Shown: positions 3,447 through 51,366 of the stretch, piece after piece
How the letters are laid out: each line of letters begins with the position of its first letter
Position numbering within the stretch: position 1 is the stretch's first letter
Assembly: GCA_031414955.1 (NCBI GenBank)
Contig: JANOQV010000164.1
Location: forward strand, 14,698 to 78,697
Length of the DNA stretch: 64,000 nucleotides
Direction of reading: 5' to 3'
From: Pedosphaera sp.
GTDB lineage: Bacteria > Verrucomicrobiota > Verrucomicrobiia > Limisphaerales > SIBH01
The notes under the pieces: generated by a model
Told to the model about the DNA's origin: nothing
Database searches by the model: none
What the model saw: the letters and a program-made list of their open reading frames with translations, nothing else
Position numbers and translations under genes: made by a program

Positions 3447-4199
3447 ATGGCAACTTTCGAGTCTGAAGCCGGCTCCATCGCTCCGCTCGGGCGGGCCTTT
3501 GCCACGACGCACTGGAGCATGGTGCTGCTGGCCGGACAGGAGTCGTCGTCCGCCGCCACCGCCGCGCTGGAGGAATTGTGCCGCACCTACTGGTATCCGC
3601 TTTACGCCTTCGTCCGCCGGCAGGGGCATGACGCCTCGGCCGCGCAGGATTTGACCCAGGAGTTTTTCTCCCGGCTGCTGGCGGCGAATTGGCTGGAATC
3701 GGTGGATCGTAGCAAGGGCAAGTTCCGCTCCTTCCTGCTGGCCTCGATGAAGAACTTCCTGGCCAACGAATGGGACCGGACCCAGGCGCAGAAGCGCGGC
3801 GGCGGCCTGGTGCATTTCTCCCTTGATGCTGTGACCGCGGAGGAACGGTATCAACTCGACCCGGCGGATGAGTTGACTCCTGAGAAAATCTTCGCGCGCC
3901 GCTGGGCGGAGACAGTTATTGATGCCGTGACCCTGAAGTTGCAGGAGGAATTCGCGGGGGCAGAGATGGCGCGGCGCTTCGGGGTCTTAAAAGTATTTCT
4001 CCTGGCCGGCGACGAGCCTCCGAGCTACGCGGAAGTGGCGCAACAGTTGGAAATGTCCGAAGGCGCGACGCGCACGGCCATTTACCGGATGCGCCAGCGT
4101 TACGGCGAATTGTTTCGCGCCGAGATCGCGAAGACGGTGAGCGGGCCGACGGAACTGGAGGAGGAAGTCCGCGAATTCTTCGCGGCGCTGGGCGGCTGA
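3447..4199 (+). CDS. ECF RNA polymerase sigma factor (PVC type, usually found next to Ser/Thr kinases)
   Basis: [42 protein letters not shown] and C-terminal [33 protein letters not shown] 3447 preferred to the ORF-track start at 3372. Confidence 0.9.
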
Positions 4200-4324: not shown

Positions 4325-7300
4325 ATGCTTGCATCACATACATGTCCGCAGTGCGGGGCACCGGTGGCCGGGAGCGCCGTGGCCGGGCTGTGCCGCAAAT
4401 GCCTCCTGCTCGGACTGCTCAGCGGCCTGGGCGCACCCGCTGATTCCGGCCTGCCCGGTGGAGTCGTTCATTCCTTCGGCGAATACGAGCTGCTCGGCGA
4501 GATTGCGCGCGGGGGCATGGGCGTGGTGTATCGGGCCCGGCTCAAGTCGCTCAACCGCGTGGTCGCGCTCAAGGTGATCCAGGCGGGGCGCCTGGCCAGC
4601 ACGGCGGAGGTCAAACGCTTCCAAATCGAAGCCGAGGCCGCCGCCCGGCTGGAACATCCGAACATCGTGCCCATCTACGAGGTGGGCGAGCATGACGCCC
4701 GGCCGTACTTCACCATGAAGCTGGTCGAGGGCGGGAGCCTGGCGGATGGAATGCATAAGGCAGAAGGAGGAAGGCAGAAACCGGATGCCGGCCGCCCGCC
4801 CTCGGTGCCGCTTCTGCATCGTTCATTCACCCTGCTGCATTTCTGCAAAGTAGCCCGCGCGGTTCACTACGCGCATCAGCGCGGGATTCTGCATCGCGAC
4901 CTCAAACCAGCGAACATTCTCCTCGACGCGCAGGGGGAGCCGCACGTCACCGACTTCGGACTGGCCAAGCAATTGGAAAGCGTGGCGGATCTGACTTTGA
5001 GCGGAGCGGTGATCGGCACGCCGAGTTACATGGCGCCAGAGCAGGCGGCGGGGCGGAACAAGGAAGTCACGACGGCGGCGGACGTGTATAGCCTGGGCGC
5101 GATTCTCTACGAACTGCTGGCCGGTCGTCCGCCCTTCCAGGCCGACACGCCGCTGGCCACAATGCGGATGGTGCTCGAGGAGGAGCCGGTGCCGCCCAGC
5201 CGGGTGAGGGGAGGGCAGAAGGAAGAAAGAAGAAGGAAGAAACGGAACGAGCGGGGAAGTTTGCAACCTTCCCATACATCCTTCTCCCTTCAGCCTTCAG
5301 CGTTCACCGATCTGGAAACGATCTGCCTGAAGTGCCTGCAGAAAGATCCGGGGCAGCGCTACGTTTCGGCCGAGGCCCTGGCGGAGGACGTGGAGCGGTG
5401 GCTGCGGCACGAACCGATTGAGGCCCGGCCGAGCACAGTGCGGGAGCGGACGGTGAAGTGGACGAGGCGGCACCCGGCGCGGGCGGGATTGATAGCGGTG
5501 AGCGCGGCGGCGGCGCTGGGGTTTGTCCTGCTCCTGCTGGTCAGCGGGCAGCGTCTCCAGCGCGAGCGCAACCTCGCGGTGGCCCAGGAGCGCATCACCC
5601 AGGAGAATCTTTACGCGGCGGACATCCTCCTGACCCAGCGCGCGCTCGACGAGGGCAACATCGGCCTCGCGCGGCGCACGCTCGAAGCGCACGTTCCCGC
5701 GGCGGGCCGGCGGGATTTACGCGGCTTCGAATGGGGGTACTTCTGGAAGCTTTCCCAGGGCAATGGGCAACACATCCTGCCGGGACACGCGGGCGGATCC
5801 GCCTCCGTCGCCTTCTCGCCCGACGGCGCACTGCTCGCCTCGGGCGGGGCTGATCACACGATCAAACTCTGGCGTGTGGCCGGTCGCGAACTGACCGCCA
5901 CTATCGACACCGGCACGAACGTGGTGGAGGCGCTGACCTTCGCCTCGGATGGCCGGCAGCTTGCCGCCGCCACCGCCGATGGCTCGGTGAAGCTCTGGGA
6001 TTGGAAGGCGTCCAGAATTGTTTTTCCTTTTCGCCTGACGCCGGGCGAGGTCGCCTTTTCGCCGGGACTCAACTCTTTCGCCATCGCCACCGCCGCACCG
6101 TTTCAAGGTGTGGCCGGTCATGTCATGCGCGTTTACCAAATGCGACGCGGCACCGAGACCTCGGCTTTCGTCGATGCCACGGGCCAGGCCGCCTTTTCCC
6201 ATGACGGAAATATCCTCGCCACCAGCACCAGCACCAATCTCAAGCTCTGGTCGTTGATCACGAAAAAGGAACTGCGTTCCCTGCCTGGCTCGTCGCCCTC
6301 GGCGGCGCTCGCCTTCTCGCCAGATGATGGCTGGCTGGCGAGTTTCACGACCGAGGGCCGCACGGTGCAGCTTTGGGGTGTGCAGGCCCATGCGCTCGCC
6401 GGTGAATTCCAGGGCCACAGCGGAAGAATCCTGGCCGTGGCGTTTTCGCCGGACAGTGCGCGACTGGCCACGGCCGGCGCCGACCAGTCCGTGCGGCTCT
6501 GGGACGTGGCCACGCGGCGGGAACTGGCCTGCCTGCGCGGGCATGGCAGCGAAGTGCGGGCGGTCGCGTTCTCGCCCAACGGCGCGACTCTGGCCAGCGC
6601 GGGCAAGGACGGGACGGTGCGCCTTTGGAACGCCGCGCCGCCCACTCACGAAGCTCCAGCCACGAACGCCTTCCCGCCACTCATCCTTTCCGCCAACGGC
6701 GCACGGCTCGCCACGCTCTCCGAGCGCACCCGGGCCACCAACACTCCCGTCGTGATCTGGGATGTGGCGCGGGGCCAGGCGTCGGTCACGCTCGCCGCCG
6801 GATATTTTCACGAAGCCGCCTTCTCCGCGGACGGGCTAACTCTGATCACCATTGCGCGGCGGGCCCCGGGCGATGTGCTGCGCGCCAATCATTGGGATGT
6901 GGCGCAAGGCGTGAATGTGCGGAAGGTGAATCTCATGCAGGACAAGAAGGCCCGCACCGCCCGCGCCCTTTCGGCCGATGGTCGGGTGCTGGCGGAGTCG
7001 CTGCAAGCCGGCTCCATCGTCCTCGCGGACACCGCCACCGGACAGTCGCTCGGGGCGCTCCCGGGATTTGGGGACAGCATCCGCCTGATGTTTTTCTCGC
7101 GCGATGGCCGCACCTTGGTCTCAGCGGGGACGAAAGGTGAAGTCACGCTGTGGGATGTTTTCACCCGGGCCGCCCGCAGCCGGTTTCAAGCCGGAACCGA
7201 ACCGGTGGTCGCGGCCGCGCTTTCGCCGGACGCGCGGACGTTCGCGCACGGTGGCGGCGACAATCAGATCCATCTCCGCGATGCGATCACCGGCGCGGAG

Positions 7301-7552
7301 CAATTTGTCCTGACTGGGCACCGCGAACCTGTTTCCTGCCTCGCCGTCTCGACGGATGGACGCACGCTCGCCTCCTCCAGCGCCGACGGCTCGTTGAAGC
7401 TCTGGAGCCTGGCCGCGCGTCGCGAGATGGCGACGCTGGAACAAAGTTCACCTGCCGACGCGATCCTCTTCACGCCCGATGGGCAAACCATGATGACAGT
7501 TCATCGCAACGGCCGGCTGCGCTTCTGGCGGGCGCCAGCGGTCAACCCATGA
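4325..7552 (+). CDS. Hanks-type Ser/Thr protein kinase with N-terminal Zn ribbon, TM helix and C-terminal WD40 repeats (paralogue 1)
   Basis: CPQC...[36 protein letters not shown]; hydrophobic [18 protein letters not shown]; many GH...VAFSPDG..LAS...D..V.LW repeats. Confidence 0.95.
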
Positions 7553-7574
7553 GTTCAACCGTGAAGGAGCGACG

Positions 7575-10500
7575 ATGAACCAAGACCGGCCGGGCACGGC
7601 CACCTCCACAACTTGTCCGAATTGCGGCGCGACCGTGGCTGTTGACGCCGTGGCCGGGCTGTGCCGCAAATGTCTGCTCCGCGGACTGGTCAGCGGTCTG
7701 GCGGAGTCGGGCGATTCCCACGGTTCCTTCGGCGAGTACGAGTTGCTGGGTGAGATCGCGCGCGGCGGCATGGGGGTGGTGTATCGGGCCCGGCTCAAGT
7801 CGCTCAACCGCGTGGTCGCGCTCAAGGTGATCCAGGCGGGGCGCCTGGCCAGCGCGGCGGAGGTGAAGCGCTTCCAAATCGAAGCCGAGGCCGCCGCCCG
7901 GCTGGAACATCCGAACATTGTGCCCATCTATGAAGTGGGCGAGCACGACGCCCGGCCCTACTTCACCATGAAACTGGTGGAGGGCGGGAGCCTGGCGGAC
8001 CGGTGTTCGGAGCTTCGGGTTTCGGGTTTCGGGTGGGAAGACGCCCCGGCCTACGCGGACCGCCTAACCCGAAACGTGAAACTCGTGGCCACAGTGGCGC
8101 GCGCCGTTCATTACGCGCATCAACGCGGGATTCTGCATCGCGACCTCAAGCCGGCCAACATCCTCATCGATGCGCAGGGCGAGCCGCACGTCACCGACTT
8201 CGGGCTGGCCAAGCAACTGGAGAGCGTGGGCGACCTGACGTTGAGCGGAGCGGTGATCGGCACGCCCAGCTACATGGCACCGGAGCAAGCGGCCGGGAAA
8301 AGCAAGGAAGTCACGACGGCGGCGGACGTGTATAGCCTGGGCGCGATTCTCTACGAACTGCTGGCCGGCCGGCCACCCTTCCAGGCCGACACGCCATTGG
8401 CCACGATGCGGATGGTGCTCGAGGAGGAGCCGGTGCCGCCCAGTCGATTTCCAATTTCAGATTCACGATTAACGAGCGGCGCGACCACAGGGTGCGTCAA
8501 TCGAAAATCGAAAATCGTTAGTCCGGTGGACCGCGACCTGGAAACCATCTGTCTCAAGTGCCTGCAAAAGAATCCCGCGCACCGTTACCCCTCGGCCGAG
8601 GCGCTGGCGGAGGACATGGAGCGCTGGCTCCGGCAGGAGCCGATCAAGGCGCGCCCCAGCACGATTCACGAACGCGCGGTCAAATGGACCCGGCGTCATC
8701 CAGCCCGGACTGGATTGATCGTTGTCAGCGTGGTGGCGGCACTCGGATTTGTCACCCTCCTCCTGATCAGCGGAGAGCGACTCCAGCGTGAGCGCAATGA
8801 CGCTGTCGCCCAGGGACAAAAGGCCACCGTGGCGGCGGCGCGCGCCGACGCGGAAGCGAAACGAGCCAATGAGGCCAAAGCGCAAACCCGCCAGAACCTC
8901 TACGCCGCCGACATGATGCTTGCCCAGCACGCTCTGGATGACGGCAATCTGGGTTTGGCCCGCCGCCTGGTCGAGGCGCATCGACCCGCCCAAAATCAAG
9001 AAGACCTGCGCGGCTTCGAGTGGCGCCACTTGTGGAAACAATGCCAGGGCGATCAACTCCACACGCTCCACGGCCATTCGAACGGCGTTCACTCCGTGGC
9101 CTTCTCGCGTGACGGCAAGTTGCTGGCTTCCGGCGATCGCGCGGGTGCGGTCAAACTCTGGAATGTTGCCACCCGCCGCCCATTCGACACGCTGGCCGCC
9201 GGTCGGCGCCCCATTGTGCGGGTCTCGTTCTCCGCCGACGGCCAGGCGCTGGCCACAGCGGATGAATCGGGATTGATCAACGTCTGGGATCTCGCCACGC
9301 GGGCCGCGTTGTGGACCCATCAAGGGAGAAATCCGCGCGGCGTCCAACTCTCCCCCACCGGCACCTGGATCGGTTTCACGGAAGGTCCGGAAGGCTCGGG
9401 GATTCATGTCACCAACTCGGCGGCCTGCGTCGTGGATTGGGTCACGGGGCGGGAGGTGCTGCGGGTCGCGGCGCAGGACTTCGAAGGCTTTGCGCCGGAG
9501 GGCGAACGGGCCTATCTCACGGGTGCCCGGCCCAGCCGCGCGGAACTTTGGGATCTGGCCACCGGACAACGCCTCCAGACGTTCCCCGGTTTGGAGGCCT
9601 GGGTTTTTCCGTCCCCGAACGGTCGTATCGTGGCGGGACTCCCTTATTGGCGAACCGAAATTACCTTCATCGATCTGGCGGACCACAAGCCGCCGGCGTT
9701 GCTCCGGTTGAACAGTGGCGCGGCTTTGAGTCTGGCCTTCTCGCCGGACAGCAAGCTGCTGGCTGGTGCCGTGACCGATCAAACCGTGCGCATTTGGGAC
9801 GTGTCGAGCCAGCGGGAAGTGGCCCGGTTCCGGGGGCACGTCGATGCTGTCACGGGCGTGGCGTTTTCGCCCGATGGCCAGGTTCTGGCCACGTCGAGCG
9901 CGGATCACACCGTGATGTTCTGGCCGATGGACGGGCAGAAGAATACCGAGATCATTTCGGAGGCGTGGCCTCCATACCTCCTGTCTCCCGACGGCAAGAC
10001 CCTCGCCGCTTTCGACAAGCATGTGGCGGCGAAGAAGATCGTCATCTGGGACACGGCCACTCACCAAGCCACGGCGCTGACCAAACCCGGCGAGCCACTG
10101 GTGCCGGAGTTTTTTTCCGCCGACAGCCGGACACTGGTGGCGCGAGCCGAGCCGACGCCCGAAGGTTTCCTGCCGTTGCTGAGTTGGGATTTGAATGCTC
10201 CAGCCCGCCCGCCCAGAACGATGTTGCTCAATGTCCAGGATACGAACGCCGTCTTCGGCGCGGCTTCCGCACTGGAAGCGCCCGTCTATGCCTTGCGACA
10301 GGTGCAGAACCAGGCGATCACGCTTTGGAACCCGCTCACCGGCGAGGCGCTGGGCCAGTTGCGCAAACAGTGGCTCGGCAAGCCGTGGAAATTATCGCCG
10401 GACGGGCACAAGCTGGTCGGGTTCGGGTCCATGTTTCAATTCAGCCTCACCGATCTGGCGACGCCGAATAAACCCGCTTTCGCCCGACTGCCCGTCGCCG

Positions 10501-11082: not shown

Positions 11083-14000
11083 ATGAATACCGCACTGCTC
11101 CGCCTGGCCCGCATTCTTTGTCCCCAATTCGTCCTTCCCACCTCCGCCAATTCATCCCGCTCAACCAGGGCCGGGCGGTGCAGCCCGGGCCGCGCGTGGT
11201 GGCTGGCCGCCGCGCTGGTTTGCGCCGCGCCTCTCGCTGGCTGGTCGTTGCAAGTGCAGGCCGACTGGGAGCGAGCCTTCATCGGAAGCTCGCCGCAGAT
11301 TTACGCGCTGACGCGCGCGGAGGGGACCAACGCCTACGCCATCAAGACCGACGCCGAGGGCAATGTGTATGTGGGCACGACGACGCAGCGCGGCGCCGGC
11401 ATCTTTGACGCCGACATGCTGCTCCTGAAATACAATTGCAAGGGAACTTTGATTTGGTCGCGGACGTTCAACAGCGGGCCGGGCCTGAACGATTACCTTT
11501 CCAGCATCGACCTTGATGCCGCAGGCAACATCTTTATCACTGGCTTCAGTGAAACCACGACCGGTTTTGGCGCGCCCCGGCGTTGGATGACCTTGAGGTA
11601 CTCGCCGGCGGGCGTCATCTCCTGGGGGCCGAACATTTATGGCACGGCTCACGGCTTGACCATCCCCCGGGCCATCGCCATCGATGGTTTCGGCGACGTG
11701 GTGGTGTCGGGCATTGACATGGTGGCCGGCACGCCGCGCATCTCGATGGTCAAGTACTGCGGGCAGAATGGCGGCCTGCTCGGGTCCGCCGCCGCGACCA
11801 CCGTGCCCGGCCCGGCCAGCATGGTGCATCCGCAATTCCAGTCCGGCGGCACGCCCATGGCTCTGGATCGATTCGGCAACGCCATCGTCGCGGGCTGGAT
11901 TGATCAGCCGAGTTCGGTCGCGCAATGTCTGACCGTCAAATTCAAGTGCGAGAGCATCTCGGCCTGCAACTACGGCGGCACGTTTCTCTACGATGCTCTG
12001 CTCCATGCCGGCAGCGGCCAGCAACTGGGCTACGCGGTGGCTTTGAATCAGAACACCTCGCCCCAAATGATTTACGTGCTTGGGTTTGACCGGCTCAACA
12101 ATCGTTGGACCGTGGTCAGCTATCGCGACAATCCATCCGTTTCCATCAGCCTCAACACCACTTGGGGCGGGAGCGGAGTGGTGAATTACAATTTTCCCGG
12201 CAGCACGGCCAACGATCCGAGCGCCATCGCCGTGGCGGCGAATGGCCAGGTGGTGGCCACGGGGGCGACCACGGTCTCCGGCCGCTCCGATTACCTCACC
12301 GTGAAGTGGAACGCCAATGGCATCATCCCCGGCGTCTGGCCGCCCATTCGCACCAGCACGCCGGCGTTCTTCTTCGCCTACGACGGGCTCAAGGCCACGG
12401 CGGTCAAACTGGACGCTGCCGGCAATGTTTACGTGACGGGTGCTGGCCACAGCCTGGTGAACGGCACGACCGATTTCCTTACCATCCGTTATGGTCTGGC
12501 TCCGCTGCCGCTGACGCCGGAAGACTGGTGGGTCATCCGCAACTACCCGAACGTGGGCAGCACCACCTATCACGACAAAGGCGTGGCCATGACGCTGGAT
12601 GCGAGCGGTCATGTCTATGTCACCGGTCCTTCCTTGCAGGTCTCGGGTGCGGCACCGACTCGGGCCGACACGGTCAAGTACTGCCAGGGTCCGCCGGCCA
12701 ATGACACCTGCGCCACGGCTCCCTTTGTCTCCTCCGGCACGACCGCATTCAGCACCTGCTTCGCGAACAGCACCAGTCCCACGGTTAGCCCCTGCGGCGC
12801 GGACAATCAGGATGTGTGGTTTCGCTGGCGGGCGCCGTGCAACGGCCTGGTCGATATGGATACGTTTGGCAGTTGCTTCGACACGGTGCTCACGGTGTAT
12901 GACGCGGGGGTCGCCGGGACGTGCGCCACGCTGGGCGCGGTTCAGATTTGCGATGACAACGCCCTCGCCGGCCGGCCCGCCGGAACGCCGCAATCTTACG
13001 GGACGTTCTCGGCCATTGCGGGCCATGTTTATTACATCCAAATCGGCGGAGGCACTGGTGCCAGCGGCCCGACCGGGGACGGGCGTCTGACCATCTTTGG
13101 ACCGTATCCGCCGGTGGGCACTTGTCCGTCGTCAGGCACTTGGGGTCCGTGGCGTGTGTTCAAACTGACCGGCTCCGGCAATGGTTCCAACTGGCGCTGG
13201 TCCATCGCGGCACCTTGCTGCATGAACTTGCAGGGCACGGCCTTCGGTCCGATTGCCGGGTCTTCGCCCAGCACTCTCGCCACCGTGTTCGCGGCCAGCA
13301 TCAACGCCGCCTGCCCCGGCATGGCGGTTGCCATGGGCAACACGTTGGCGGTTCGTGCCCAATGTGCGGGGCCGTTTGACTTTCGCGTGGGCCAGGCGAC
13401 AACACCGTTCAACGCTCTCTGCCTGGTGCCGAATCTTTCGCCCGGCGGGCTGACCACGGCCACGACGCCGGGCGTCTGCCGGTTCAACCCGGAGATAGAA
13501 GAGCAGCCTGATCCGCTGCCGGACTGCAACGGCAACGGCGTGCCGGACCACATCGACATCGATCTGGGCACGAGCCTGGACCTGAACGAGAACGGCATTC
13601 CTGATGAGTGCGACTCTCCGGTGGTGCAGACGATCACGAACAGCGTGGTGGCCGGGTACAACCTCATCGCGGTGCCATTGGTGAGCAGCAACAACCTGCT
13701 CGGGACGGTGCTGCCCGGCGCACAGGATGGCGACCAGGTCTTCCGGTGGAATGTGGTCACCCAGGATTTCGTGGACTCGGATGTTTATGTGGCTGGCTTG
13801 GGCTGGATTGATGCCTTCACCGGCGATCCTTCGGCCACCACGATTTCACCGGGTGAGGGCGCGTTCTATCTCACCTCCGTTGGCCGCACTTGGAGCTTCA
13901 CCGGCACTCCGATTCAATCGACGCTGCCGATCTTCGCCACGCCCGGTTCGTTGACCCTGGCCAGCCGGCAGGTGCCTGGGACTGGCAGTTGGGAGAACAT

Positions 14001-17000
14001 CACCGGACTGCCGCAGGAACCAGGCTCGCAACTCATCCGCTTCGATCCCTTGACGCAAGATTACGTCAGCAACTCGTTCAACGGGAACGTGTGGTCGGGC
14101 GGCGCACCGTCGGTGAATTCCGGCGAGTCGGCGTTCATCCTCCGGGCGCTCTCCTCGCTCCTCTCCTTTGATTGCGTGAGCAACAAGACCGTGTTCAGCA
14201 GCAACTCGTGGAGCTTCGATCTGCCCACCGCGACGACCACCTGCCCGTTGAGCAACGTCGTCATCACGGTCCAGAGCACCGTGACCAACAGCTATTGCCC
14301 GCTGATTCTCACGCGCACCTGGCAGGCCACGGATGGTTGCAGCAACAGCGCCATCTGCAGCCAGATGGTCACCGTCATCAACACCACGCCGCTCGACATC
14401 CATTGCCCGAGCAACATCGTGGTCAGCACGACCGGCTCGAACGTGGTCGTCAACTTCACGCCCACCTACAGCGGCGGCACCTTCAGCGGCTGTGTGCCGC
14501 CGAGCGGTTACGCCTTCCCGGTGGGCACGACCACGGTGACTTGCTACATCGACAACGGCTGCACCACCAACGCCTGCACCTTCAGCGTCACGGTCAACGG
14601 CAGCGGCCCGCCCGACATCACCCAGCCGCCGGTCAGTCAGGTCGCGACCCAGGGGCAGTTCGTCTCCTTCGAGGTGCTGGTCGCGGGGGCTGGTCCGTTG
14701 ACCTTCCAATGGCACTTCAACGGGCAGCGGATTCTCGAGGCTCAGGATGATCGCATCCTCACCATCGCGAATGTGCAGCCGGCGAATTTCGGCTCTTACT
14801 TCGTCGTGGTGAGCAACTCGCTCGGCACCGTGACCAGCGCGGTGGCCACGCTGGCGGTGATCGCGAATCCGGTGGCGACGCCGGAGTGTTGCGGAGTGAA
14901 GCCGACTTTCTCTGGAGTCCCTCCGCCAGCCACGTACGCGGGCTTTGCCGGGCAAATCGCAGCCGTCACCAGCTTCTCGTTCGACCTGAACGCGCCGGTG
15001 CTTTCCATCTTCGATGTGCAGAACTCCGCCGCGCCGGTGAATGTGAATTATCCCGCGCCGGTGTTTACCGGCCCGGCCAGCGCGCCTTGGACCAAGGCCC
15101 GGCTCGGCAACATCTTCGGCCTTTGCTTCGACGGCGCGGGCAACATCTACGTGGCGGCCTCGGCCATTTACAACGAGACGCCGGACACGGCCGGGCCAGG
15201 CGGGCTGGGCGCGGTGTACAAGATTGATGGCGTCACCGGCGTCATCACCACCTTCGCCGTCCTGCCCAACGCGGGCAAAGCCAGCCTGGGCAACATCAAA
15301 TACTCCTGCCAGCACGCGAATTTCTACGTCTCCAACCTGGGCGATGGACTCATCTACCGGCTGGACCTCAACGGCAACATCATCGGCACCTTTGATCACG
15401 GGGCCGGTTTGCCCACGGCCGCGCCGCCTTTCCCCGCCATTCTCGACAACCCGGTCGATGCCTACACGCAGTTGGGCCGCCGCGTCTTCGGACTCAAGCC
15501 GCACAACGGTCGCCTTTATTACGGCGTGTGGTGGGAACATAATGGCGCGCCAGATCCATTGCATGACAACGAGATTTGGTCCGTAGCCTTGAACTCCTCC
15601 GGCGCGCCCATCGCCGGCACCCAGGCGCGGGAGATCATCCAGCCACCCAAGGCCGTTGGCGGCAACTATTCCAATCCATGCTCGGACATCAGCTTCAGCC
15701 CCGCCGGCCAGATGCTGTTCGCCGAGCGCACCTTGACGAGCGACAGCTTGTCCTGGGCGCACGGCTCGCGCATCGTCGAGGCCTCGGGGTGCTGCGGCGC
15801 CTGGTCGCTCAACCTCACGAAATACTTCGCCAATCCGTGCTTTGGACCCAGCAGCGCGGGCGGTGTGGATTATGACCGTTCCGCGGGCGGCCGGGTCTGG
15901 GCCACGGGTGACGCGCTGCATTTCATAGGTTGCGCGGGTCATTCAGATTACATCTACGGAATTTTTGGCCTGCCACTGGCCGGTGGCAACACGCTCAACA
16001 GCGTGCTCATCAATGTGGATGGTCTGACCGGCGTCGGCAACAAGACGCAGATCGGGGACGTGGAACTGCCGTGTCCCCCGCCCCGTTGTCTGGTCGTGAC
16101 CAATGAGGTGTTGAACTGCATCAGCAACAACGGCACTTACTCGTACAAGTTCTGCGCTACGAACTTCTTCAACGGGCCGATTAGCCACATCACGCTTTTG
16201 GACCCGCCGCCCGGCGTCACGTTCACGCCGGACATCATCAACCTCGCCACGCCGTTGTTGCCGGGTCAGGGCAACTGCTTCGAGGTGACGGTGCGCTACA
16301 CCGGCACGGGGCCGACCAACGTCTGCTTCCGCTTCGGCGCGCACAACTCCAACTTCGTCCAGTGCTGCGCCAGCCCGCACTGCGTGGTGCTGCCGGACTG
16401 CTGCGCCTACATTTACAACGAGAGCCTGACGCCCATCCCCGGTCAGGGCGGCTGCTACAATTACACCTTCACCGTCCGGAACGTGGTTTGGCCGCCGACG
16501 CCCATCCAATACCTCATCCTCGTGAGTGATCCGCCAAACACCTGTTTCAGCATCACGCCGGACGTTCTTTACTTCAGCACGCCGTTGCTGCCGAACCAGT
16601 CCGCCACGCGCACGGTCAAGGTTTGCAGCACGGCCAATCCGCCGTGCCCGCAGCCTTTCTGCTTCCAGTTCTCCCTGCACGACACGAACTTCCTCCGCTG
16701 CTGCGCCACGCGGCGTTGCGCGCCGAAAGCCAAGGGGCCGATCAAGTTCGCCGACGGCCTGGACGGCTCGGCCTATCTCGCCGGGGCCAACATCAGTCTG
16801 CCGGTGGTGGTGGACGCCTCGTTCGTGGAGCCGGCCCTGGTCACGGCCTATGAGGGTTCAAATGTCCTCCGGACCATCGTGGATCCAACGGACGGTCAGC
16901 ACGACGACTGGTTCGTGTTGAGCAACGCCGTCAGCGGTGCCTACACCCTGCGACTCCAGGAGACGGACACGCTCGGTGGCGAGTGGGAAGCCGATCCGAT

Positions 17001-17268
17001 TACGGTGTTCGTCTATGGCGTGATCGAGCCGTTGCCCGACCCGGTGAACTCGGGTCCGCGCTTCCTGACTCCGACGTTGCTGGATGGGAAAGTCAGTCTC
17101 TCCCTCGCGACCGAACTCGGCGTGACTTACCGGATCGAATACACGGAGTCGCTCACGGTGCCGAACTGGCAAACGCTCCACACCCTGCTTGGGGACGGCT
17201 CGGTGATGTCGCGCACCGACCCGCTGGTCAACGGGCCGCAGCGGTTCTACCGCATCCGCACGCCCTGA
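11083..17268 (+). CDS. Giant secreted modular protein A (2061 aa): SBBP-type propeller, PPC-like domain, Ca-binding DCNGNG repeat, HYR, Ig, second propeller, two Cys-rich domains, Ig, FYR tail
   Basis: Signal-like WWLAAALVCAAPLAG; repeats D..GNVYVTG; PANDTCATA...DVWFRW; DCNGNGVPD...NENGIPDEC; HYR-like CVPPSGYAFPVGTTTVTC; Ig PPDITQPP...FQWHFNG; ends QRFYRIRTP. Confidence 0.85.
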   Translation: MNTALLRLARILCPQFVLPTSANSSRSTRAGRCSPGRAWWLAAALVCAAPLAGWSLQVQADWERAFIGSSPQIYALTRAEGTNAYAIKTDAEGNVYVGTTTQRGAGIFDADMLLLKYNCKGTLIWSRTFNSGPGLNDYLSSIDLDAAGNIFITGFSETTTGFGAPRRWMTLRYSPAGVISWGPNIYGTAHGLTIPRAIAIDGFGDVVVSGIDMVAGTPRISMVKYCGQNGGLLGSAAATTVPGPASMVHPQFQSGGTPMALDRFGNAIVAGWIDQPSSVAQCLTVKFKCESISACNYGGTFLYDALLHAGSGQQLGYAVALNQNTSPQMIYVLGFDRLNNRWTVVSYRDNPSVSISLNTTWGGSGVVNYNFPGSTANDPSAIAVAANGQVVATGATTVSGRSDYLTVKWNANGIIPGVWPPIRTSTPAFFFAYDGLKATAVKLDAAGNVYVTGAGHSLVNGTTDFLTIRYGLAPLPLTPEDWWVIRNYPNVGSTTYHDKGVAMTLDASGHVYVTGPSLQVSGAAPTRADTVKYCQGPPANDTCATAPFVSSGTTAFSTCFANSTSPTVSPCGADNQDVWFRWRAPCNGLVDMDTFGSCFDTVLTVYDAGVAGTCATLGAVQICDDNALAGRPAGTPQSYGTFSAIAGHVYYIQIGGGTGASGPTGDGRLTIFGPYPPVGTCPSSGTWGPWRVFKLTGSGNGSNWRWSIAAPCCMNLQGTAFGPIAGSSPSTLATVFAASINAACPGMAVAMGNTLAVRAQCAGPFDFRVGQATTPFNALCLVPNLSPGGLTTATTPGVCRFNPEIEEQPDPLPDCNGNGVPDHIDIDLGTSLDLNENGIPDECDSPVVQTITNSVVAGYNLIAVPLVSSNNLLGTVLPGAQDGDQVFRWNVVTQDFVDSDVYVAGLGWIDAFTGDPSATTISPGEGAFYLTSVGRTWSFTGTPIQSTLPIFATPGSLTLASRQVPGTGSWENITGLPQEPGSQLIRFDPLTQDYVSNSFNGNVWSGGAPSVNSGESAFILRALSSLLSFDCVSNKTVFSSNSWSFDLPTATTTCPLSNVVITVQSTVTNSYCPLILTRTWQATDGCSNSAICSQMVTVINTTPLDIHCPSNIVVSTTGSNVVVNFTPTYSGGTFSGCVPPSGYAFPVGTTTVTCYIDNGCTTNACTFSVTVNGSGPPDITQPPVSQVATQGQFVSFEVLVAGAGPLTFQWHFNGQRILEAQDDRILTIANVQPANFGSYFVVVSNSLGTVTSAVATLAVIANPVATPECCGVKPTFSGVPPPATYAGFAGQIAAVTSFSFDLNAPVLSIFDVQNSAAPVNVNYPAPVFTGPASAPWTKARLGNIFGLCFDGAGNIYVAASAIYNETPDTAGPGGLGAVYKIDGVTGVITTFAVLPNAGKASLGNIKYSCQHANFYVSNLGDGLIYRLDLNGNIIGTFDHGAGLPTAAPPFPAILDNPVDAYTQLGRRVFGLKPHNGRLYYGVWWEHNGAPDPLHDNEIWSVALNSSGAPIAGTQAREIIQPPKAVGGNYSNPCSDISFSPAGQMLFAERTLTSDSLSWAHGSRIVEASGCCGAWSLNLTKYFANPCFGPSSAGGVDYDRSAGGRVWATGDALHFIGCAGHSDYIYGIFGLPLAGGNTLNSVLINVDGLTGVGNKTQIGDVELPCPPPRCLVVTNEVLNCISNNGTYSYKFCATNFFNGPISHITLLDPPPGVTFTPDIINLATPLLPGQGNCFEVTVRYTGTGPTNVCFRFGAHNSNFVQCCASPHCVVLPDCCAYIYNESLTPIPGQGGCYNYTFTVRNVVWPPTPIQYLILVSDPPNTCFSITPDVLYFSTPLLPNQSATRTVKVCSTANPPCPQPFCFQFSLHDTNFLRCCATRRCAPKAKGPIKFADGLDGSAYLAGANISLPVVVDASFVEPALVTAYEGSNVLRTIVDPTDGQHDDWFVLSNAVSGAYTLRLQETDTLGGEWEADPITVFVYGVIEPLPDPVNSGPRFLTPTLLDGKVSLSLATELGVTYRIEYTESLTVPNWQTLHTLLGDGSVMSRTDPLVNGPQRFYRIRTP

Positions 17269-17464: not shown

Positions 17465-19453
17465 ATGAACGCGATACTCACACTCTTCAGGCCACGCTGG
17501 CGGGTCATCGGATCTTGGCTGGCGTTGCTCCTTGCACCCATTCAAGTCTCCGCAGGTCCGGTTTTCTTGGGAGGCGAGGATCTGGATTACCACGGCAACT
17601 ACAACAGCGGTGCCGGACCGAACCAAAAGGGATGGCTCTACATCCAGAAAGCGATTGCCAGCATCTACGCGTGTACGCCTGGGCCTGGTTGTCCTGGGAA
17701 CGATGGGAGCATTGCCGTGCTGGGATGTCCGGCTTCCACGCTTCCGAATGGGACATCGGTTTCCAGCGGACATGCTGGCGCTGCCATACATTTTGCCGCG
17801 AATGTTGCCTTGGGTAAAACGGTGGTTTTTTACGACGGCGTGGCCGGTATCAACAGTTTCTTCGCCGCCCTTGGTGCCGGCACAGTCAAACCAGCCGTCA
17901 TCTACATCCCCGGAGGGATTGCGGTCAACGGTATCAATACGGCAGAGGGTAATGCGTTGACTGCGCACGCGTTGCAGATCAAAGCCTTCGTCAACTGCGG
18001 TGGCGGCCTGATGGCCCACATCGACATCGCCTCGACCATGGGTTGGGTTTCAGCAGTGCTGCCAGGTTTGGTAATCAACGCCAACTGTTCGTCAACCGGC
18101 GCTACTCTGACGCCCGACGGCATCGCCGCATTTGGCCTTCTTTCCAACAACGATATTAACAACAATGCGGGCCCGTGCCACCGGACCTTCTCAGGTGTAT
18201 TGAACGGCCTGAAAGTGCTGGCCAATGATGGGACTGGCAAGCCGTTCATCATCGGCGGCGGCTGTGGTACAGTCATTGACCAGCCCTGCCTCTCGATCAC
18301 CAACCGCGCCGTGGATTGCATGTCCACGAACCAAACCTACAAGTGGGATTTCTGCGTCACGAACACTTGGACCGATCCGATCAAGTACCTCAGCCTCACG
18401 GATCTCCCCGGGGGAGTCACGGTCAACCAGGACATCATCACCCTGCCGTCGGTCCTCATGCCAGGCCAGGGCACCTGCCTCACGATCTACATCACCAACA
18501 CGCCGGGGTTGACCAACATGTGCTTCACCATCGGGGCGCATACGACCAACTTCTTCCTCTGCTGTTCGATCACCAATTGCCTCACCTTCGAGCCGTGTTG
18601 CGTGTTCTTCTCCGGCGAAACCATGACCCCGATCGCGGGCACGGGCTGCTACAACTACACCTTCAACGTCCGCAACGTGACGCCCTCGACGACCATGCGC
18701 TACCTGTTCCTGGTGCAGGATCCGGCTCCGCCGCCAACGTGTGTCACCTTCACGCCGGACATCCTGGTGCTCCCGCCGCTGGCGCCGGGCCAGAGCGTGA
18801 CGCGGACGGTCAAAGTCTGCATCGCCTCGGGCTGCACCGGCCCCATCCACTTCCTGGCCTCGGCACATGACACGAACCTGACCCATTGCTGCTCCACGCG
18901 GCATCGTGTTCCGCCCGCCTCGGTGATCAAGTGGCCTGGCGGTCTGGATGGCACGGTGTTTGAGCCGGGAACCATTCTGTTGCCGATCGAACTGGACACG
19001 ACTTTCGTCACCCCAAGCGTCATCACCGTTTACGAGGGCACGAACGTGATCAAGAACCTCGAGTTCGCGCCGGGATCGGAGCCGACCAACGGCGTGAGTG
19101 TCATCTGGAGCAACGTGGTGGCGGGCACGTACACCTTGCGGGCGCAGGAGACGGACACGCTGGGAGGAGTATGGGACGCTGATCCAGCCACGATTTACGT
19201 GGTGGAGCATGAACATGAACCGGTGGCCCCGGATATCGCGCCGCCGCTCACCGGACTGAAGTGCGTGGGCGATGCCTTGAGCTTCTGCCTGGCGACCACG
19301 GCCGGCCGCACCTACCACATCGAATCGGCCGATTCGCTGACCGCACCCAGCTGGACCCTGGTCCGGGACGTGGTGGGCGACGGAACGATCATCACCGTGA
19401 CCAACACGATGACGAGCGCGCCGCAGCGGTTCTATCGCGTGCGCGGCGACTAG
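17465..19453 (+). CDS. Secreted protein B (662 aa): unknown N-terminal domain + two Cys-rich domains + Ig + FYR tail
   Basis: Signal peptide WLALLLAPIQVSA; the C-terminal ~390 aa align by eye with the C-terminus of protein A; ends QRFYRVRGD. Confidence 0.85.
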   Translation: MNAILTLFRPRWRVIGSWLALLLAPIQVSAGPVFLGGEDLDYHGNYNSGAGPNQKGWLYIQKAIASIYACTPGPGCPGNDGSIAVLGCPASTLPNGTSVSSGHAGAAIHFAANVALGKTVVFYDGVAGINSFFAALGAGTVKPAVIYIPGGIAVNGINTAEGNALTAHALQIKAFVNCGGGLMAHIDIASTMGWVSAVLPGLVINANCSSTGATLTPDGIAAFGLLSNNDINNNAGPCHRTFSGVLNGLKVLANDGTGKPFIIGGGCGTVIDQPCLSITNRAVDCMSTNQTYKWDFCVTNTWTDPIKYLSLTDLPGGVTVNQDIITLPSVLMPGQGTCLTIYITNTPGLTNMCFTIGAHTTNFFLCCSITNCLTFEPCCVFFSGETMTPIAGTGCYNYTFNVRNVTPSTTMRYLFLVQDPAPPPTCVTFTPDILVLPPLAPGQSVTRTVKVCIASGCTGPIHFLASAHDTNLTHCCSTRHRVPPASVIKWPGGLDGTVFEPGTILLPIELDTTFVTPSVITVYEGTNVIKNLEFAPGSEPTNGVSVIWSNVVAGTYTLRAQETDTLGGVWDADPATIYVVEHEHEPVAPDIAPPLTGLKCVGDALSFCLATTAGRTYHIESADSLTAPSWTLVRDVVGDGTIITVTNTMTSAPQRFYRVRGD

Positions 19454-19466
19454 CAATTGCGACCCC

Positions 19467-19498
19467 GGCTGGAGCCGCGCGCCCACGCGGCTCCAGCC
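19467..19498. repeat. Perfect 13-bp stem-loop between genes B and C (possible mRNA stability or processing hairpin)
   Basis: GGCTGGAGCCGCG-cgccca-CGCGGCTCCAGCC; no U-tract. Confidence 0.6.
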
Positions 19499-19514
19499 CC
19501 GGGGTGTCACGATC

Positions 19515-27613: not shown

Positions 27614-27915
27614 GCGAAGAAGCCAATCCGGCTGGCGGTGGCCAGCGATTCGGCCCGGCTCAATTGCTTTTGTGATTCGCCAGCCCGCCGGGAAGGCGGA
27701 AGTGCCCTTCTCGATGGGCTGGTAATCAAGATTTGCCCGGCCGGAACGCTTCAGGCCAGAGCTGCGGTCCACCAACCCGGTGTGGAACGCAGCCGGTCCA
27801 ACCACCGCGCACCGGCGGAAGAATGTTCCACGCTTCAGGCGCATAATTCGTGAGCGGCGGTGACTCCTGAAGTCTCCTCCGGAGCAAAAAGGCATTTCGG
27901 GTGATTTCCCACCAC

Positions 27916-28983
27916 ATGAAACTTGTTCCCGCCCCTCGCAGTGCTACCGTCCCGCCCGTGAGCGCATCCGATCAGTCTGAACGCAAGCCTCTCAAGATGG
28001 TGGAATGCGGCGGGTGCAGAGCGAAAATCTTCATCCCGTCCGACCTTCAGCCCTTCGAGAGCATTCCCTGCACGCGTTGTGGGCATCCCGTCTTGATGCC
28101 CATGCAGTTCCGCCAGTTCGAGCTGCGCTCCATCATTGCCTCGGGCGGCATGGGCACGGTGTATCGCGCCTGGGACTTGATGCTGCACCGCGAGGTCGCG
28201 GTGAAGATGCTCAAACGCGAAATGGCCGAGGACGAGGAGGTGCTCCAGAGTTTTTATCGCGAGGCCCGGGCCAGCGCTTCGCTCAACCACACCAACATCA
28301 TCCACATCTATACCTTCGATGAAGCCGAAGGGCAGCCCTACCTGGTGATGGAACTGGCCGATACGGATAGCCTGGACAAACAGATCGAGCGCGAGGGCCG
28401 CGTGCCGGAATTGCGCGTGCTGGACGTGGCCATCAAGATCGCCTCGGCACTCGACACCGCCCTCAAGCGCAACCTGCTCCATCGCGACATCAAGCCCGGC
28501 AACATCCTCTTCAATGCCGACGGCGAGCCAAAGCTGGTCGATTTCGGACTGGCCCGGGACGCCGAGGATGAATCCGCCGACCAATCCGTGATTTGGGGCA
28601 CGCCTTACTACGTGGCTCCGGAGAAAATCCGGCGCGAGCGCGAGAATTTCCACTCGGACATGTATTCGCTCGGCGGCACGCTTTACCATGCCATCACCGG
28701 CCATGTGCCCTTCGAGGCCCCGACGGTGGAGGAAGTCATCTCGGCCCACGTCAACACGCCCCTCACCCCGCCGAACGAAGTGGTGCCCGAAATCACCCCA
28801 GCCACTAGCGAAGCCATCCACATTGCCCTGGCCAAGAATCCGCAGGAACGCTTTCGCACTTACGACGAGTTCATCATGGCCTTCGAGGCGGCGCGCAGCC
28901 AGTTGCTCATGCAACAACTCCAGGCCCAGCAGGAGACCGGAGAGGGCGGCGAGGGCCAGGGCAAAGGTTGGTGGAAGCGCTAG
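27916..28983 (+). CDS. Ser/Thr protein kinase with N-terminal Zn ribbon (soluble)
   Basis: CGGC...CTRC, SGGMGTVY, VAVK, HRDIKPGN, DFG, YVAPE. Start uncertain (27901-27958). Confidence 0.92.
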   Translation: MKLVPAPRSATVPPVSASDQSERKPLKMVECGGCRAKIFIPSDLQPFESIPCTRCGHPVLMPMQFRQFELRSIIASGGMGTVYRAWDLMLHREVAVKMLKREMAEDEEVLQSFYREARASASLNHTNIIHIYTFDEAEGQPYLVMELADTDSLDKQIEREGRVPELRVLDVAIKIASALDTALKRNLLHRDIKPGNILFNADGEPKLVDFGLARDAEDESADQSVIWGTPYYVAPEKIRRERENFHSDMYSLGGTLYHAITGHVPFEAPTVEEVISAHVNTPLTPPNEVVPEITPATSEAIHIALAKNPQERFRTYDEFIMAFEAARSQLLMQQLQAQQETGEGGEGQGKGWWKR

Positions 28984-31890: not shown

Positions 31891-31956
31891 GTGGCGGGCG
31901 GGAAAGTAGAAGGAGCGCGGGGGAAGCGGCAAGGAAAGTCGTGCTGGGCCGCCCAT

Positions 31957-32097
31957 AAACTCCAAACCCCAAATCCCAAACTCCAAATAAACTCCAAGCC
32001 CCCAGATCCTAATCGCATCTGCCTCCCGGAACAGGTTCCGGTTGGAGTTCGGGCTGTTGGAGCTTATTTGGAGTTTGGGATTTGGAGTTTGAATCTT
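31957..32097. repeat. Palindromic heptamer-repeat element (AAACTCC-type)
   Basis: AAACTCC AAACCCC AAATCCC AAACTCC AAATAAACTCC AAGCCCC ... GGAGCTTATTT GGAGTTT GGGATTT GGAGTTT, in the divergent ppaC/parA intergenic region. Confidence 0.85.
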
Positions 32098-32154
32098 GCC
32101 TGCACGGTCTGTGAAATCTTGCGCCCCTCCAGCGCCGCCCCTTTAATCGCCGCC

Positions 32155-48988: not shown

Positions 48989-50269
48989 CTACGTCGGCCG
49001 CCCCACGGAGATGTGTTCCACGGCGGGAATCGGACGGAACGGCGCTTCGAGAAAGCGGTTGGCGTCCACAATCACCGGCTGCCGCATCGCCGGAATCAAT
49101 TCCGGCCACGCGGCGGTGCGGAAGGCGGGCCACTCCGTGCAAACCACCGCCGCCTCCGCACCATGCAAGGCCGCGCCCAGGTCCACCGAGAGAGTGATGG
49201 CTGCCAGTTCCGGCGGCAGTGACTGCACGGCCGGGTCATGCGCCTGGACACGCGCGCCGGCCGCGAGCAGTTGCTGGCACAGTTCCACCGCCGCGCTGCG
49301 GCGGAGCGTGTCGGTGTTCGGCGTGTACACCAGACCGAGCACGGCAATGGTTTTGCCGCGCAGGTCTCCCAGGCGTGATTGCAACTTTCGGAAAGCCCAG
49401 CTCCGGTGCAGATCGTTGCTCTCCTTGATCGCGGGGATGAGCGAAAGCGATTCGCCGCGCGCCGCGCCGAGCTTCGAGAGGGTCACGACATCGCGCGCCA
49501 GCGTGCCGCCGGCAAAGGGGCCGCCCGGCCCGAGATACGCGCGCTGGCCGATGCGCGGCTCGCTCTTGAGGCCGGTAGCGACTTCCTTCGCATCCGCGCC
49601 GACGTGTTCGCAGAGGCGTGCGATCTCGTTGATGAAGGTGATGCTGACGGCGAGGAACGAATTGAGCGCGTGCTTCACCATCTCCGCCGACTCGGTGCGC
49701 ATGAACTGCACTTGCGCGGCGAAGGGCTTGAACAGTTGTTCGAGCAACGCTCGCTTCGCATCGGTGCGAATGCCGACGACGGCGCGGTCGGCTTTCTCGA
49801 AGGCATCAATCGCTTTGCCCAGTCGGAGATTTTCCGGCGAGCAGGCGAAGTGCAGTTGTGGAAATTCTTTCTCCAGCAGCGCGCAACTTCCGACAGGAAG
49901 CTGCGATGAGATCAACACCAGCGCGCCAGCAGCCAGATGCGGCAGCGCACGGCGCGCACGTTCCAAAACGTAAGCCACATCCGACTCGTCGCCGTCATTC
50001 ACCGGCGTGTCGTAGCAAATCCACAACACATCGGCCTGGGCGCAGGCGGCTTTCGCGTCGGTGGTGAACCGCAGTGAATTCTTCGCGAGTCCGGCGGCGA
50101 GCAGTTCATTCAACCCCGGCTCGGAGATGGGCGCGCGGCCTTGCTGCAAATTGCCGACTACGGTGTCATCGAAGTCGAGTCCCGTGACATCGAAGTGTTT
50201 CGCACAGCACGCGGCGGTGACGGAACCAAGGTGCCAGAGGCCGAGGACGGTGATGTGAGGGGAAGACAT
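48989..50269 (-). CDS. UDP-glucose/GDP-mannose dehydrogenase family protein
   Basis: VLGLWHLG, CYDTP, SPENLRLG, ESAEMVKHALN, FAGGTLARD, LGLVYTPNTDTLRRS. Confidence 0.9.
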   Translation of the reverse strand: MSSPHITVLGLWHLGSVTAACCAKHFDVTGLDFDDTVVGNLQQGRAPISEPGLNELLAAGLAKNSLRFTTDAKAACAQADVLWICYDTPVNDGDESDVAYVLERARRALPHLAAGALVLISSQLPVGSCALLEKEFPQLHFACSPENLRLGKAIDAFEKADRAVVGIRTDAKRALLEQLFKPFAAQVQFMRTESAEMVKHALNSFLAVSITFINEIARLCEHVGADAKEVATGLKSEPRIGQRAYLGPGGPFAGGTLARDVVTLSKLGAARGESLSLIPAIKESNDLHRSWAFRKLQSRLGDLRGKTIAVLGLVYTPNTDTLRRSAAVELCQQLLAAGARVQAHDPAVQSLPPELAAITLSVDLGAALHGAEAAVVCTEWPAFRTAAWPELIPAMRQPVIVDANRFLEAPFRPIPAVEHISVGRPT

Positions 50270-50274
50270 GGGTT

Positions 50275-50391
50275 AAGATCCAAGATCCAAGATCCAAGAT
50301 CCAGATAAACACCAAGCCGCCGCGACACGCCCCATCCTAGATCTTGGAGTTTGGATCTTCTCTGGATCTTGGATCTTGGATCTTGGATCTT
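50275..50391. repeat. Palindromic heptamer-repeat element (AAGATCC-type)
   Basis: (AAGATCC)x4 AGATAAACACC AAG ... GGAGTTT GGATCTTCTCT (GGATCTT)x4, filling almost the whole intergenic gap. Confidence 0.9.
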
Positions 50392-51366
50392 TCATCCTCT
50401 CTTCTCGTACACCCACGGATTGGCCCGCAGCCAGTCCAGCGTCCGTCCGATGCCCTGCTCAATGGTCAGTTCCGGTTTCCAACCCGTGGCGCGGATTTTT
50501 TTCGTTTCGAGAAAGATGTAGGGGTTGTCGCCGATCCAGCCGCGTTCGCCGCCCGTGTATTCCAGGCGCGGGTTGAGTCCGAGCGCGCGGCAGAGGTAGC
50601 CGATGGAGTCATTCACCTGCACGTAATGATCGGTGCCGAGGTTGAAGACTTCCACGCGGTGCTTCGCCTTCCTGGCCAGGCCGGCGTTCATGACGTGCTG
50701 CATCGCGGAGAGACAGTCCTGGACGTAGAGATAACTTTTCCGCTGCGATCCGTCGCCCAGCACCTTCAGGTGATCCGGGTGCGCGAGGAGCTGTTGATAA
50801 AAGTCGAAGACATGGCCGTGCGTGTAGCGCTCGCCAAGAATGGAGACGAACCGGAACACGTAGCCTTCGAAGCCGAAGCCCTCGCAGTAGGAGTGAATCA
50901 ACGCTTCGCCCGCGAGTTTGGACGCGGCATAGAGCGAGGTCTGGATGGGAAACGGCGCATCCTCCGGCGTGGGAATCACGGTCGCTTCCCCATAGACCGA
51001 ACCGGTGGAGGAGAAAGCGATGGTCTTGATCCCGTTCGCGCGCATCGCCTCCAGCACGTTGAAGGTGGCGACGGTGTTCTGATCCAAATCCTTCCGCGGG
51101 TGCTCCAGGCCGAAGCGCACGTCGGCGTTGGCCGCGAGATGGAAGACGGTGTCGCAGCCCTGCATGGCGGCGGTGAGGGCGTCCAAATCGAGATTATCGC
51201 CGCGGACCATCCTGAAGTTCGGATTGTTCGACGCGCCCTGGACGAATCGTTCCTGCCCGGTGGAGAGGTTGTCCCAACCCACGACCGGTTTGCCTTGCGT
51301 GAGCAGCGCGTCAGCCAGCGTGCTTCCGATGAATCCGGCGGCGCCGGTGATAAAGATTTTTTCCAA
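50392..51366 (-). CDS. NAD-dependent epimerase/dehydratase (GalE-like)
   Basis: ITGAAGFIGS, HLAANADV, FSSTGSVYG, YAASK; TTG start inferred. Confidence 0.9.
   Translation of the reverse strand: MEKIFITGAAGFIGSTLADALLTQGKPVVGWDNLSTGQERFVQGASNNPNFRMVRGDNLDLDALTAAMQGCDTVFHLAANADVRFGLEHPRKDLDQNTVATFNVLEAMRANGIKTIAFSSTGSVYGEATVIPTPEDAPFPIQTSLYAASKLAGEALIHSYCEGFGFEGYVFRFVSILGERYTHGHVFDFYQQLLAHPDHLKVLGDGSQRKSYLYVQDCLSAMQHVMNAGLARKAKHRVEVFNLGTDHYVQVNDSIGYLCRALGLNPRLEYTGGERGWIGDNPYIFLETKKIRATGWKPELTIEQGIGRTLDWLRANPWVYEKRG

Follow-up and report, generated by a model that had tools for sequence, protein, structure and literature searches.

Background

Rickettsia palindromic elements (RPEs) are gene-less palindromes that lie in frame in unrelated genes and are translated (PMC10969869). 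In the verrucomicrobium Opitutus terrae, repetitive extragenic palindromes (REPs) tagged by GTAG/CGTC are found in frame within genes for DnaE2, helicases, and tRNA synthetases, including double insertions per gene (Di Nocera et al. 2013, PMC3733652), and the supplement of that paper contains a REP dimer in a Ser/Thr kinase. Here, a stretch of 64,000 nucleotides from Pedosphaera sp. (assembly GCA_031414955.1, contig JANOQV010000164.1, positions 14,698 to 78,697), hereafter the window, is described, in which two paralogous Ser/Thr kinase genes, K1 and K2, carry four heptamer hairpins, inverted arrays of seven-nucleotide units, at the same two sites. These inserts are in-frame copies of a hairpin class found throughout the genome, which is likely the gene-less form of a cassette enclosing PF05635 genes.

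Heptamer repeats have been reported in other contexts. Arrays of 7-mers, often arranged as inverted pairs, are abundant in Xanthomonas and Nostoc, with 70-75 inverted pairs per Xanthomonas genome (PMC4692102), and the TAACTGA repeats of Beggiatoaceae form 7-mer arrays ending just before start codons (PMC4679880). The P6b element of the Nostoc trnL group I intron is a stem-loop of complementary seven-nucleotide motifs, the class of which has been replaced independently several times in place (PMC4476775). Intervening sequences of 23S rRNA can harbor a gene for a four-helix-bundle protein (S23p, PF05635) in the loop of the terminal stem, with tandem heptamers described upstream of it in one such sequence; mobility of these sequences has been hypothesised, but not shown (PMC4990558). 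PF05635 resembles Avd (PMC10053308). No paper uniting heptamer hairpins, PF05635 genes, and refilled kinase loops was found in a search that covered few subscription journals and supplements.

Results

Four heptamer hairpins in two paralogous kinases

K1 and K2 follow, in this order, a gene for an extracytoplasmic function (ECF)-type sigma factor on the plus strand (Table 1). Both open reading frames (ORFs) are intact, and a kinase fold together with the motifs VAxK, HRD (as HRDLK), DFG, and APE identifies the products as PknB-like Ser/Thr kinases. K1 consists of an N-terminal Cys-pair motif, the kinase domain, a membrane segment predicted from the sequence, and a WD40 propeller. Many of the best-matching named relatives belong to the Verrucomicrobiota. 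DNA identity of K1 and K2 amounts to 93.6% in the N-lobe, 89.3% between the two sites, and 76.7% after site 2, and the N-lobe changes are synonymous in 16 cases and non-synonymous in one. An initial annotation, made from the letters of the window, had described kinases nearly identical except at two sites, with preserved frames and catalytic motifs, which agrees with these values. It had also pointed to a third kinase without inserts. This gene indeed lacks them, but it is distantly related (E 2e-35); close paralogues with empty sites, such as the one on contig C202, are better suited as controls. In the following, contigs of this genome (G000) are given C-numbers, the window being located on C164, and the loci compared are given L-numbers.

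In all four inserts the autocorrelation peak was found at period 7, and Tandem Repeats Finder detected period-7 arrays in three of them, the exception being K1 site 1. A combined score for period 7 and stem formation reached 30 for K1 site 1 and 38 or 39 for the other three, values attained by none of 200 dinucleotide shuffles of each insert. Period and inverted symmetry, as first noted, are therefore well founded. A hairpin fold was obtained in every case, but the plain folding z-scores are modest (-1.7, -2.3, -2.1, and -1.4). The number of perfect adjacent units per array is 0 and 2 for the two sites of K1 and 3 and 2 for those of K2. K1 site 1 is degenerate; no two adjacent 7-mers are identical, and it was missed by the genome-wide detector described below. 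Since K1 site 1 and K1 site 2 match the same dispersed copies on C149, C21, and C61, the four inserts represent three families and not four different palindromes as originally proposed.

Besides adding a net 13-28 residues, the inserts displace a few host residues. The encoded peptides have no motif common across the families, and a four-helix-bundle ORF is not contained between the arms, the kinase inserts being empty. None of the four inserts showed a GTAG/CGTC tag at its ends. A target-site duplication was not seen by eye in the alignments, in which host codons are replaced and which include no fresh pair of empty and filled alleles.

In an alignment to PknB, site 1 fell between the helices alphaD and alphaE, and site 2 between alphaG and alphaH. 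In an AlphaFold2 model based on an alignment of 108 rows (mean predicted local distance difference test, pLDDT, 87.3), the insert blocks have values of 55-67 and are positioned between confident helices; part of site 2 is modelled as helix. This model, which replaced an unusable single-sequence model (pLDDT 38.7), thus predicts loops at both sites, as had been suspected.

Heptamer hairpins across the genome

A strict scan of the genome revealed 131 inverted period-7 pairs, some of them overlapping, compared to none in a codon-block shuffle. For periods of 5, 6, 8, 9, 10, and 11, the numbers were 33, 6, 3, 1, 2, and 0, respectively. With a more sensitive scan, 197 heptamer hairpins scoring at least 35 were detected, and none in two codon-block shuffles. 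A period-6 control with scaled threshold produced 171 matches, of which 27 are left, versus 197 for period 7, at the level where the shuffle gives no false matches. The heptamer hairpins comprise 64 unit types. Members of one unit family are found in unrelated genes as well as in intergenic gaps, and near-identical copies are present on many contigs.

According to our own gene caller, 152 hairpins are intergenic, 30 are located inside genes, and 15 at gene ends. Most intergenic copies start no more than about 10 nt from a stop codon and end near the next start, and convergent gaps are avoided (4/146 versus 628/4406, p 5e-6). Two intergenic hairpins are found in the window itself (Table 1); the one with AAGATCC units fills the gap between two co-oriented genes and belongs to the same family as the arms of a four-helix-bundle gene on C241. 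At 55553-55614, degenerate CTTTGAC/ACTTTGA arrays in a single orientation, for which no partner arm was scored, are situated inside a gene call on the minus strand (54324-55970).

The hosts of intragenic hairpins are diverse. Sixteen of 20 fetched host loci were scanned with Pfam, which identified a DinB-DnaE2 fusion with four hairpins, RecG with two, Mfd, leucyl-tRNA synthetase, a class III aminotransferase, a radical SAM enzyme, RibD, a histidine kinase, an N6 methylase, and five DUF1549/DUF1553 proteins. Another host, called as Lgt-MiaA, may represent a gene junction, and one had no Pfam match. Unrelated, intact genes thus carry in-frame copies of this dispersed palindrome class. The DinB-DnaE2 fusion is a 1518-aa ORF (L195, G000:C21:5988-10544) combining a DinB/ImuB-type domain with a DnaE2-type polymerase, and its four hairpins are all in frame. 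In the DUF1549/DUF1553 proteins on C22, C32, C117, C174, and C230 (L196, L197, L200, L204, and L208), hairpins occupy recurrent positions, as in the kinases. The leucyl-tRNA synthetase (L211, on C259) contains a PBECR3 nuclease-like domain (PF18812, E 6e-18) in addition to a hairpin in the anticodon domain.

PF05635 genes with heptamer arms

The initial annotation had suggested a search for the same repeat flanks enclosing a gene, and such a gene-bearing form exists. Four PF05635/TIGR02436 genes are present in the genome (on C217, C137, C241, and C32), each between co-oriented genes. Inverted arms of period 7 flank three of them, and the arms of the fourth have period 8. When the 60 best-scoring PF05635 matches from this genome, its genus, and its order were examined, inverted heptamer arms with a score of at least 35 were detected at 34 of 57 scorable loci, but at only 3 of 200 small control genes. 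The armed loci comprise 27 unit types. PF05635 genes are widespread, occurring in 100 of 121 genomes of the order and in all 12 of the genus. Two arm units are common to PF05635 genes and kinase inserts, AAGGTTG (site 1 of the kinase on C23) and ACGATTT (the site-2 family of K2 and C23). Genes for REP-associated tyrosine transposases (RAYT/Y1, PF01797) and for reverse transcriptases were rejected as armed partners, with period-7 arms scoring at least 35 in 0/12 and heptamer arms in 0/2 cases, respectively; both reverse transcriptase matches are on contigs other than those of the four PF05635 genes. In diversity-generating retroelements, a reverse transcriptase gene accompanied by template and variable repeats stands next to an Avd gene.

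The arrangement closest to a cassette in a kinase was found at L271 (G016:C26:11500-16500), where a repeat-armed four-helix-bundle cassette separates an ECF gene from a kinase gene; a one-armed heptamer array is also present in the linker of this kinase. In two genomes of the genus (L245, L268), the four-helix-bundle frame runs stop-free into a downstream gene labelled by eye as PQQ-like propeller. Three of four GxxExxY (PF13366) genes have inverted period-9 arms (C19:21052, C301:22897, and C184:108917), scoring 47, 53, and 51 of 63 with only the other genes scored alongside as controls. This 9-mer pairing is a possible parallel to that of four-helix-bundle genes and 7-mers.

Refilled loops in related kinases

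For comparison of the loops, 200 of 226 kinase domains, taken from relatives as well as this genome, were kept, 26 being dropped for low identity or coverage. Loops were parsed by pairwise and anchor methods, as strict motif parsing caught merely 68 and 84 of 213 domains. At site 1, parsed in 170 kinases, 134 loops are of modal length and 22 have at least seven extra residues. At site 2, parsed in 176, 158 are modal and 16 longer, three of the latter belonging to a subfamily in which a long loop is conserved. Heptamer hairpins scoring at least 35 were found four times at site 1 and six times at site 2, compared to 1/60 control segments, and four further site-2 inserts retain one heptamer arm. 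Among the other inserts are GTAG REPs and unrelated palindromes (L119, L128, L133, L035); those at the same kinase loops of L128, L133, and C61 are GTAG/CGTC-tagged. Heptamer hairpins are also present in the activation segment and the pre-DFG loop of kinases (L082, L094, L104).

Both loops are filled in K1, K2, C23, L116, and L035, and K1, K2, and L116 differ from each other at both sites. In a clade of three loci (SH-aLRT, the Shimodaira-Hasegawa-like approximate likelihood ratio test, 98), site 2 is occupied by a heptamer hairpin in L127, a non-heptamer palindrome in L119, and a GTAG-REP with nested heptamers in L128. The underlying quick IQ-TREE tree comprised 49 of 149 core sequences and left most deep forks open. 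Alignment of the paralogues thus revealed sister kinases with different inserts at the same sites, as expected from the first description, but also that most loops are empty and some inserts are REPs without heptamers. These comparisons agree with its proposal of sites repeatedly targeted by, or tolerant of, a non-autonomous element: a hairpin class that is dispersed and gene-less has supplied the inserts, and the loops have been refilled again and again in different paralogues and genomes.

Graded relationships were also detected. Across L007, C23, and K2, site-2 arms grade from GAATGAC to CGATTT units, the right arm of the K2 insert being related to the site-2 inserts of C23 and L007. The K1 site 2 and L127 inserts have the same length and the same junctions with 67.5% DNA identity, and common descent is plausible. 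GTAG-REP doublets with a heptamer spacer were found in 3/17 cases compared to 2/800 random windows. Their flanks are shared and their units different, which shows unit turnover; the three nested spacers may go back to a single nesting event. These doublets are located within genes at C61:11333, C183:15917, and C219:940, and another one is contained in L128.

Mosaic relationships of the K1 insert

At site 1, K1 and the distant paralogue C107 both carry an insert of 33 codons with the same junctions and 76.8% DNA identity, the loop between the arms included. Sixteen of these codons are identical, 7 differ synonymously, and 10 non-synonymously. Such a pattern indicates that the insert is common to both by descent. 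The initial annotation had held that inserts conserved with ordinary codon divergence would speak against its proposal; this is what K1 site 1 and C107 exhibit, and overall it applies in part. The N-lobe of K1 is 73.0% identical to that of C107 and 93.6% identical to that of K2. As inserts and N-lobes of K1 and C107 are similarly conserved, the kinase inserts are old. The match of K1 site 1 to C107, while its flanks match K2, points to recombination between paralogues, which may have homogenised the flanks or moved a loop. Consistent with a mosaic, synonymous divergence of K1 and K2 rises from 45/201 codons before site 2 to 21/40 after it (Fisher p 3e-4); no such step was seen in two control pairs.

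Table 1 Features of the window
Feature	Position	Strand	Basis and remarks
K1 site 1, degenerate AAGGCAG-family heptamer hairpin	4748..4846	+	alphaD-alphaE loop; by descent common to paralogue C107
K1 site 2, heptamer hairpin of the AAGGCAG/GAAGAA family	5204..5305	+	alphaG-alphaH loop; score 39
K2 site 1, TTCGGGT/AACCCGA heptamer hairpin	8004..8087	+	three perfect left-arm units; score 38
K2 site 2, CGATTTC/AATCGAA heptamer hairpin	8445..8525	+	score 38
Kinase 1 (K1), 1075 aa	4325..7552	+	PF00069, PF00400
Kinase 2 (K2), paralogous kinase-WD40 protein, 1097 aa	7575..10868	+	ORF and Pfam domains
ECF-type sigma factor, operon head	3447..4199	+	ORF, start from own gene caller; TIGR02937 E 1.6e-9, under the curated cut-off
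Third, distantly related kinase without inserts	27901..28983	+	270 residues on 271 profile positions; kinase E 2e-35
Intergenic heptamer hairpin, AAACCCC/AAATCCC units	31952..32102	.	score 41
Intergenic heptamer hairpin, AAGATCC units	50267..50402	.	score 49

Downstream of the kinase genes, a series of very large repeat proteins, which are probably secreted, is encoded (11083-17268 and 17465-27613); the first of them has a weak SBBP propeller match.

Discussion

The four kinase inserts probably represent hairpins of an element class that has been little described; such hairpins have repeatedly refilled loops tolerant of them and have been reshuffled by recombination between paralogues. Such hairpins would spread in trans with the four-helix-bundle cassette, whose protein would move them, and selection would keep only those loop landings that are in frame and free of stop codons. 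A loop already containing a hairpin would offer a larger neutral target, open to refilling and to nested insertion, and slippage and arm-to-arm correction could turn it over. The flanks of K1 and K2 would have been homogenised by recombination or gene conversion among paralogues, which left or moved heterologous loops and gave rise to the picture of two genes identical except at two sites. The outcome would mostly be neutral variation of loops, with persistence likely due to the insertion tolerance of these kinase loops.

Several observations weigh against this explanation. Movement of hairpins was not observed, and PF05635 genes are not known to have transposase activity. A score below 35 was obtained for 23 of the 57 PF05635 loci, and these were best-scoring matches and not a random sample. 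The units of K1 or K2 are absent from the arms of the four PF05635 genes in this assembly, and in none of the ten loci checked did a kinase site contain a complete four-helix-bundle cassette. Gene calls came from a simple caller of our own, and several hairpins counted as intragenic may lie at gene junctions. A comparison of G.U with A.C pairs revealed no excess of G.U on the sense strand (62 versus 56 for intergenic and 20 versus 26 for intragenic hairpins), so that a step at the RNA level gains no support. Finally, kinase genes contain 6 of the 30 intragenic hairpins on 2.4% of coding residues. The nominal p value of 7e-5 refers to events that are not independent, but the enrichment leaves room for selection or targeting.

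If selection were involved, the two loops could constitute a variability module of ECF-linked kinases, with captured hairpin cassettes shuffled between paralogues and altering docking or insulating kinase-sigma pairs. This adaptive diversification could account for the excess of hairpins in kinases, for kinases in which both loops are filled, for the site-1 loop that K1 has in common with a distant paralogue, and for the purifying selection on the flanks of K1 and K2 that is apparent from their N-lobe changes. Yet most kinases of the family are empty at both sites, the loops accept hairpins of any family, and the peptides of different families have no common motif. Recurrent sites also exist in DUF1549/DUF1553 proteins, which are enriched in the same way, Pfam having confirmed five cases in about 1% of the coding residues. 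The adaptive module is therefore considered quite unlikely. A diversifying system dedicated to kinases, as the initial annotation had envisaged, is not supported either: most copies are intergenic, housekeeping and DUF1549/DUF1553 genes are affected alike, and REPs enter the same loops.

Alternatively, slippage together with template-switch correction of quasi-palindromes could have generated the hairpins in place and could turn them over there without any mobile element, the four-helix-bundle genes being mere passengers between the arms. The 64 unit types with their unique loops, the different units in homologous REP spacers, the gradation of site-2 arms, and the absence of visible target-site duplications would all fit such an origin. 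It is nevertheless unlikely, since it does not readily explain that a unit family turns up in unrelated genes and gaps, with many contigs carrying near-identical copies, that period 7 is singled out (131 pairs versus 0-33 for other periods), that arms are specific to four-helix-bundle genes (34/57 versus 3/200), and that intergenic copies mostly extend from stop to start and rarely occupy convergent gaps.

It had also been proposed that gain or loss of one unit switches a kinase on and off, because seven is not a multiple of three. The three perfect units at K2 site 1 would be suited to such phase variation, and in a 23S intervening sequence the S23p ORF is preceded by two or three heptamers, depending on the strain (PMC4990558), which indicates that slippage by single units can happen in this repeat class. 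However, long perfect arrays typical of contingency loci are not present, the arrays being short and imperfect with at most three perfect units. Among 208 near-full kinase matches, no frameshift was detected at either site; one frameshift and one stop codon were located elsewhere. Contigs of run X1, possibly the source sample, matched three inserts without differences, K2 site 2 lying outside the pieces listed, and runs X3 and X4 from another study span K1 site 2 with one differing letter and no gap. In the contigs of four runs, which drop rare variants, no change in unit number was listed, with 27 repeat letters skipped at K1 site 2. For the heptamers of Xanthomonas and Nostoc, a role in phase variation was judged unlikely by Rehm et al. 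(PMC4692102). Regular switching of the kinases is accordingly regarded as highly improbable; occasional knock-outs by unit change are possible, but nothing points to a switch.

The tolerated hairpin insertions work like RPEs and intragenic REPs, but belong to neither group. RPEs are families of about 150 bp with a conserved peptide (PMC10969869), whereas the hairpins described here consist of 80-110 nt of tandem 7-mers with 64 unit types and differing peptides. From the GTAG/CGTC REP-RAYT system they are distinguished by untagged inserts with period-7 arms and by RAYT/Y1 genes devoid of heptamer arms. The repeats of Xanthomonas, Nostoc, and Beggiatoaceae have been described with one unit per lineage, and the accessible text of the reports mentions no link to four-helix-bundle genes or refilled loops (PMC4692102, PMC4679880). 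For the replacement of one class by another at a single site, the P6b loop of Nostoc trnL is the nearest precedent, although there two classes alternate in a non-coding intron loop (PMC4476775), while here many classes enter a coding site under frame constraint. Inverted period-7 arms unite the four inserts with the armed, intervening sequence-like PF05635 cassettes. The intervening sequences proper are located in rRNA and cut out by RNase III without religation (PMC4990558), in contrast to the cassettes in operons and empty hairpins in ORFs found here. Miniature inverted-repeat transposable elements have a target-site duplication and terminal inverted repeats in common with an insertion sequence that bears a transposase; the arms described here are found around PF05635 genes.

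In a more far-reaching version, about which we remain doubtful, the hairpins would be the non-autonomous arm of an undescribed class of mobile elements run by an Avd-like four-helix-bundle pentamer that homes into existing hairpins. Once opened, a loop would be a renewable cassette slot, and recombination between paralogues would provide ECF-linked kinases with new docking loops; the GxxExxY/9-mer system may be a parallel.

The heptamer hairpins of Pedosphaera sp. are not evidence of a kinase-specific switch. They join three topics that are kept apart in the literature consulted, orphan heptamer repeats, the function of S23p/PF05635, and translated palindromes, and provide a candidate partner gene, PF05635, for heptamer repeats. 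The kinase family, in which two fixed positions exhibit loops that are empty, filled, refilled, nested, or swapped, represents an unusually clean natural series on selfish DNA building protein loops.

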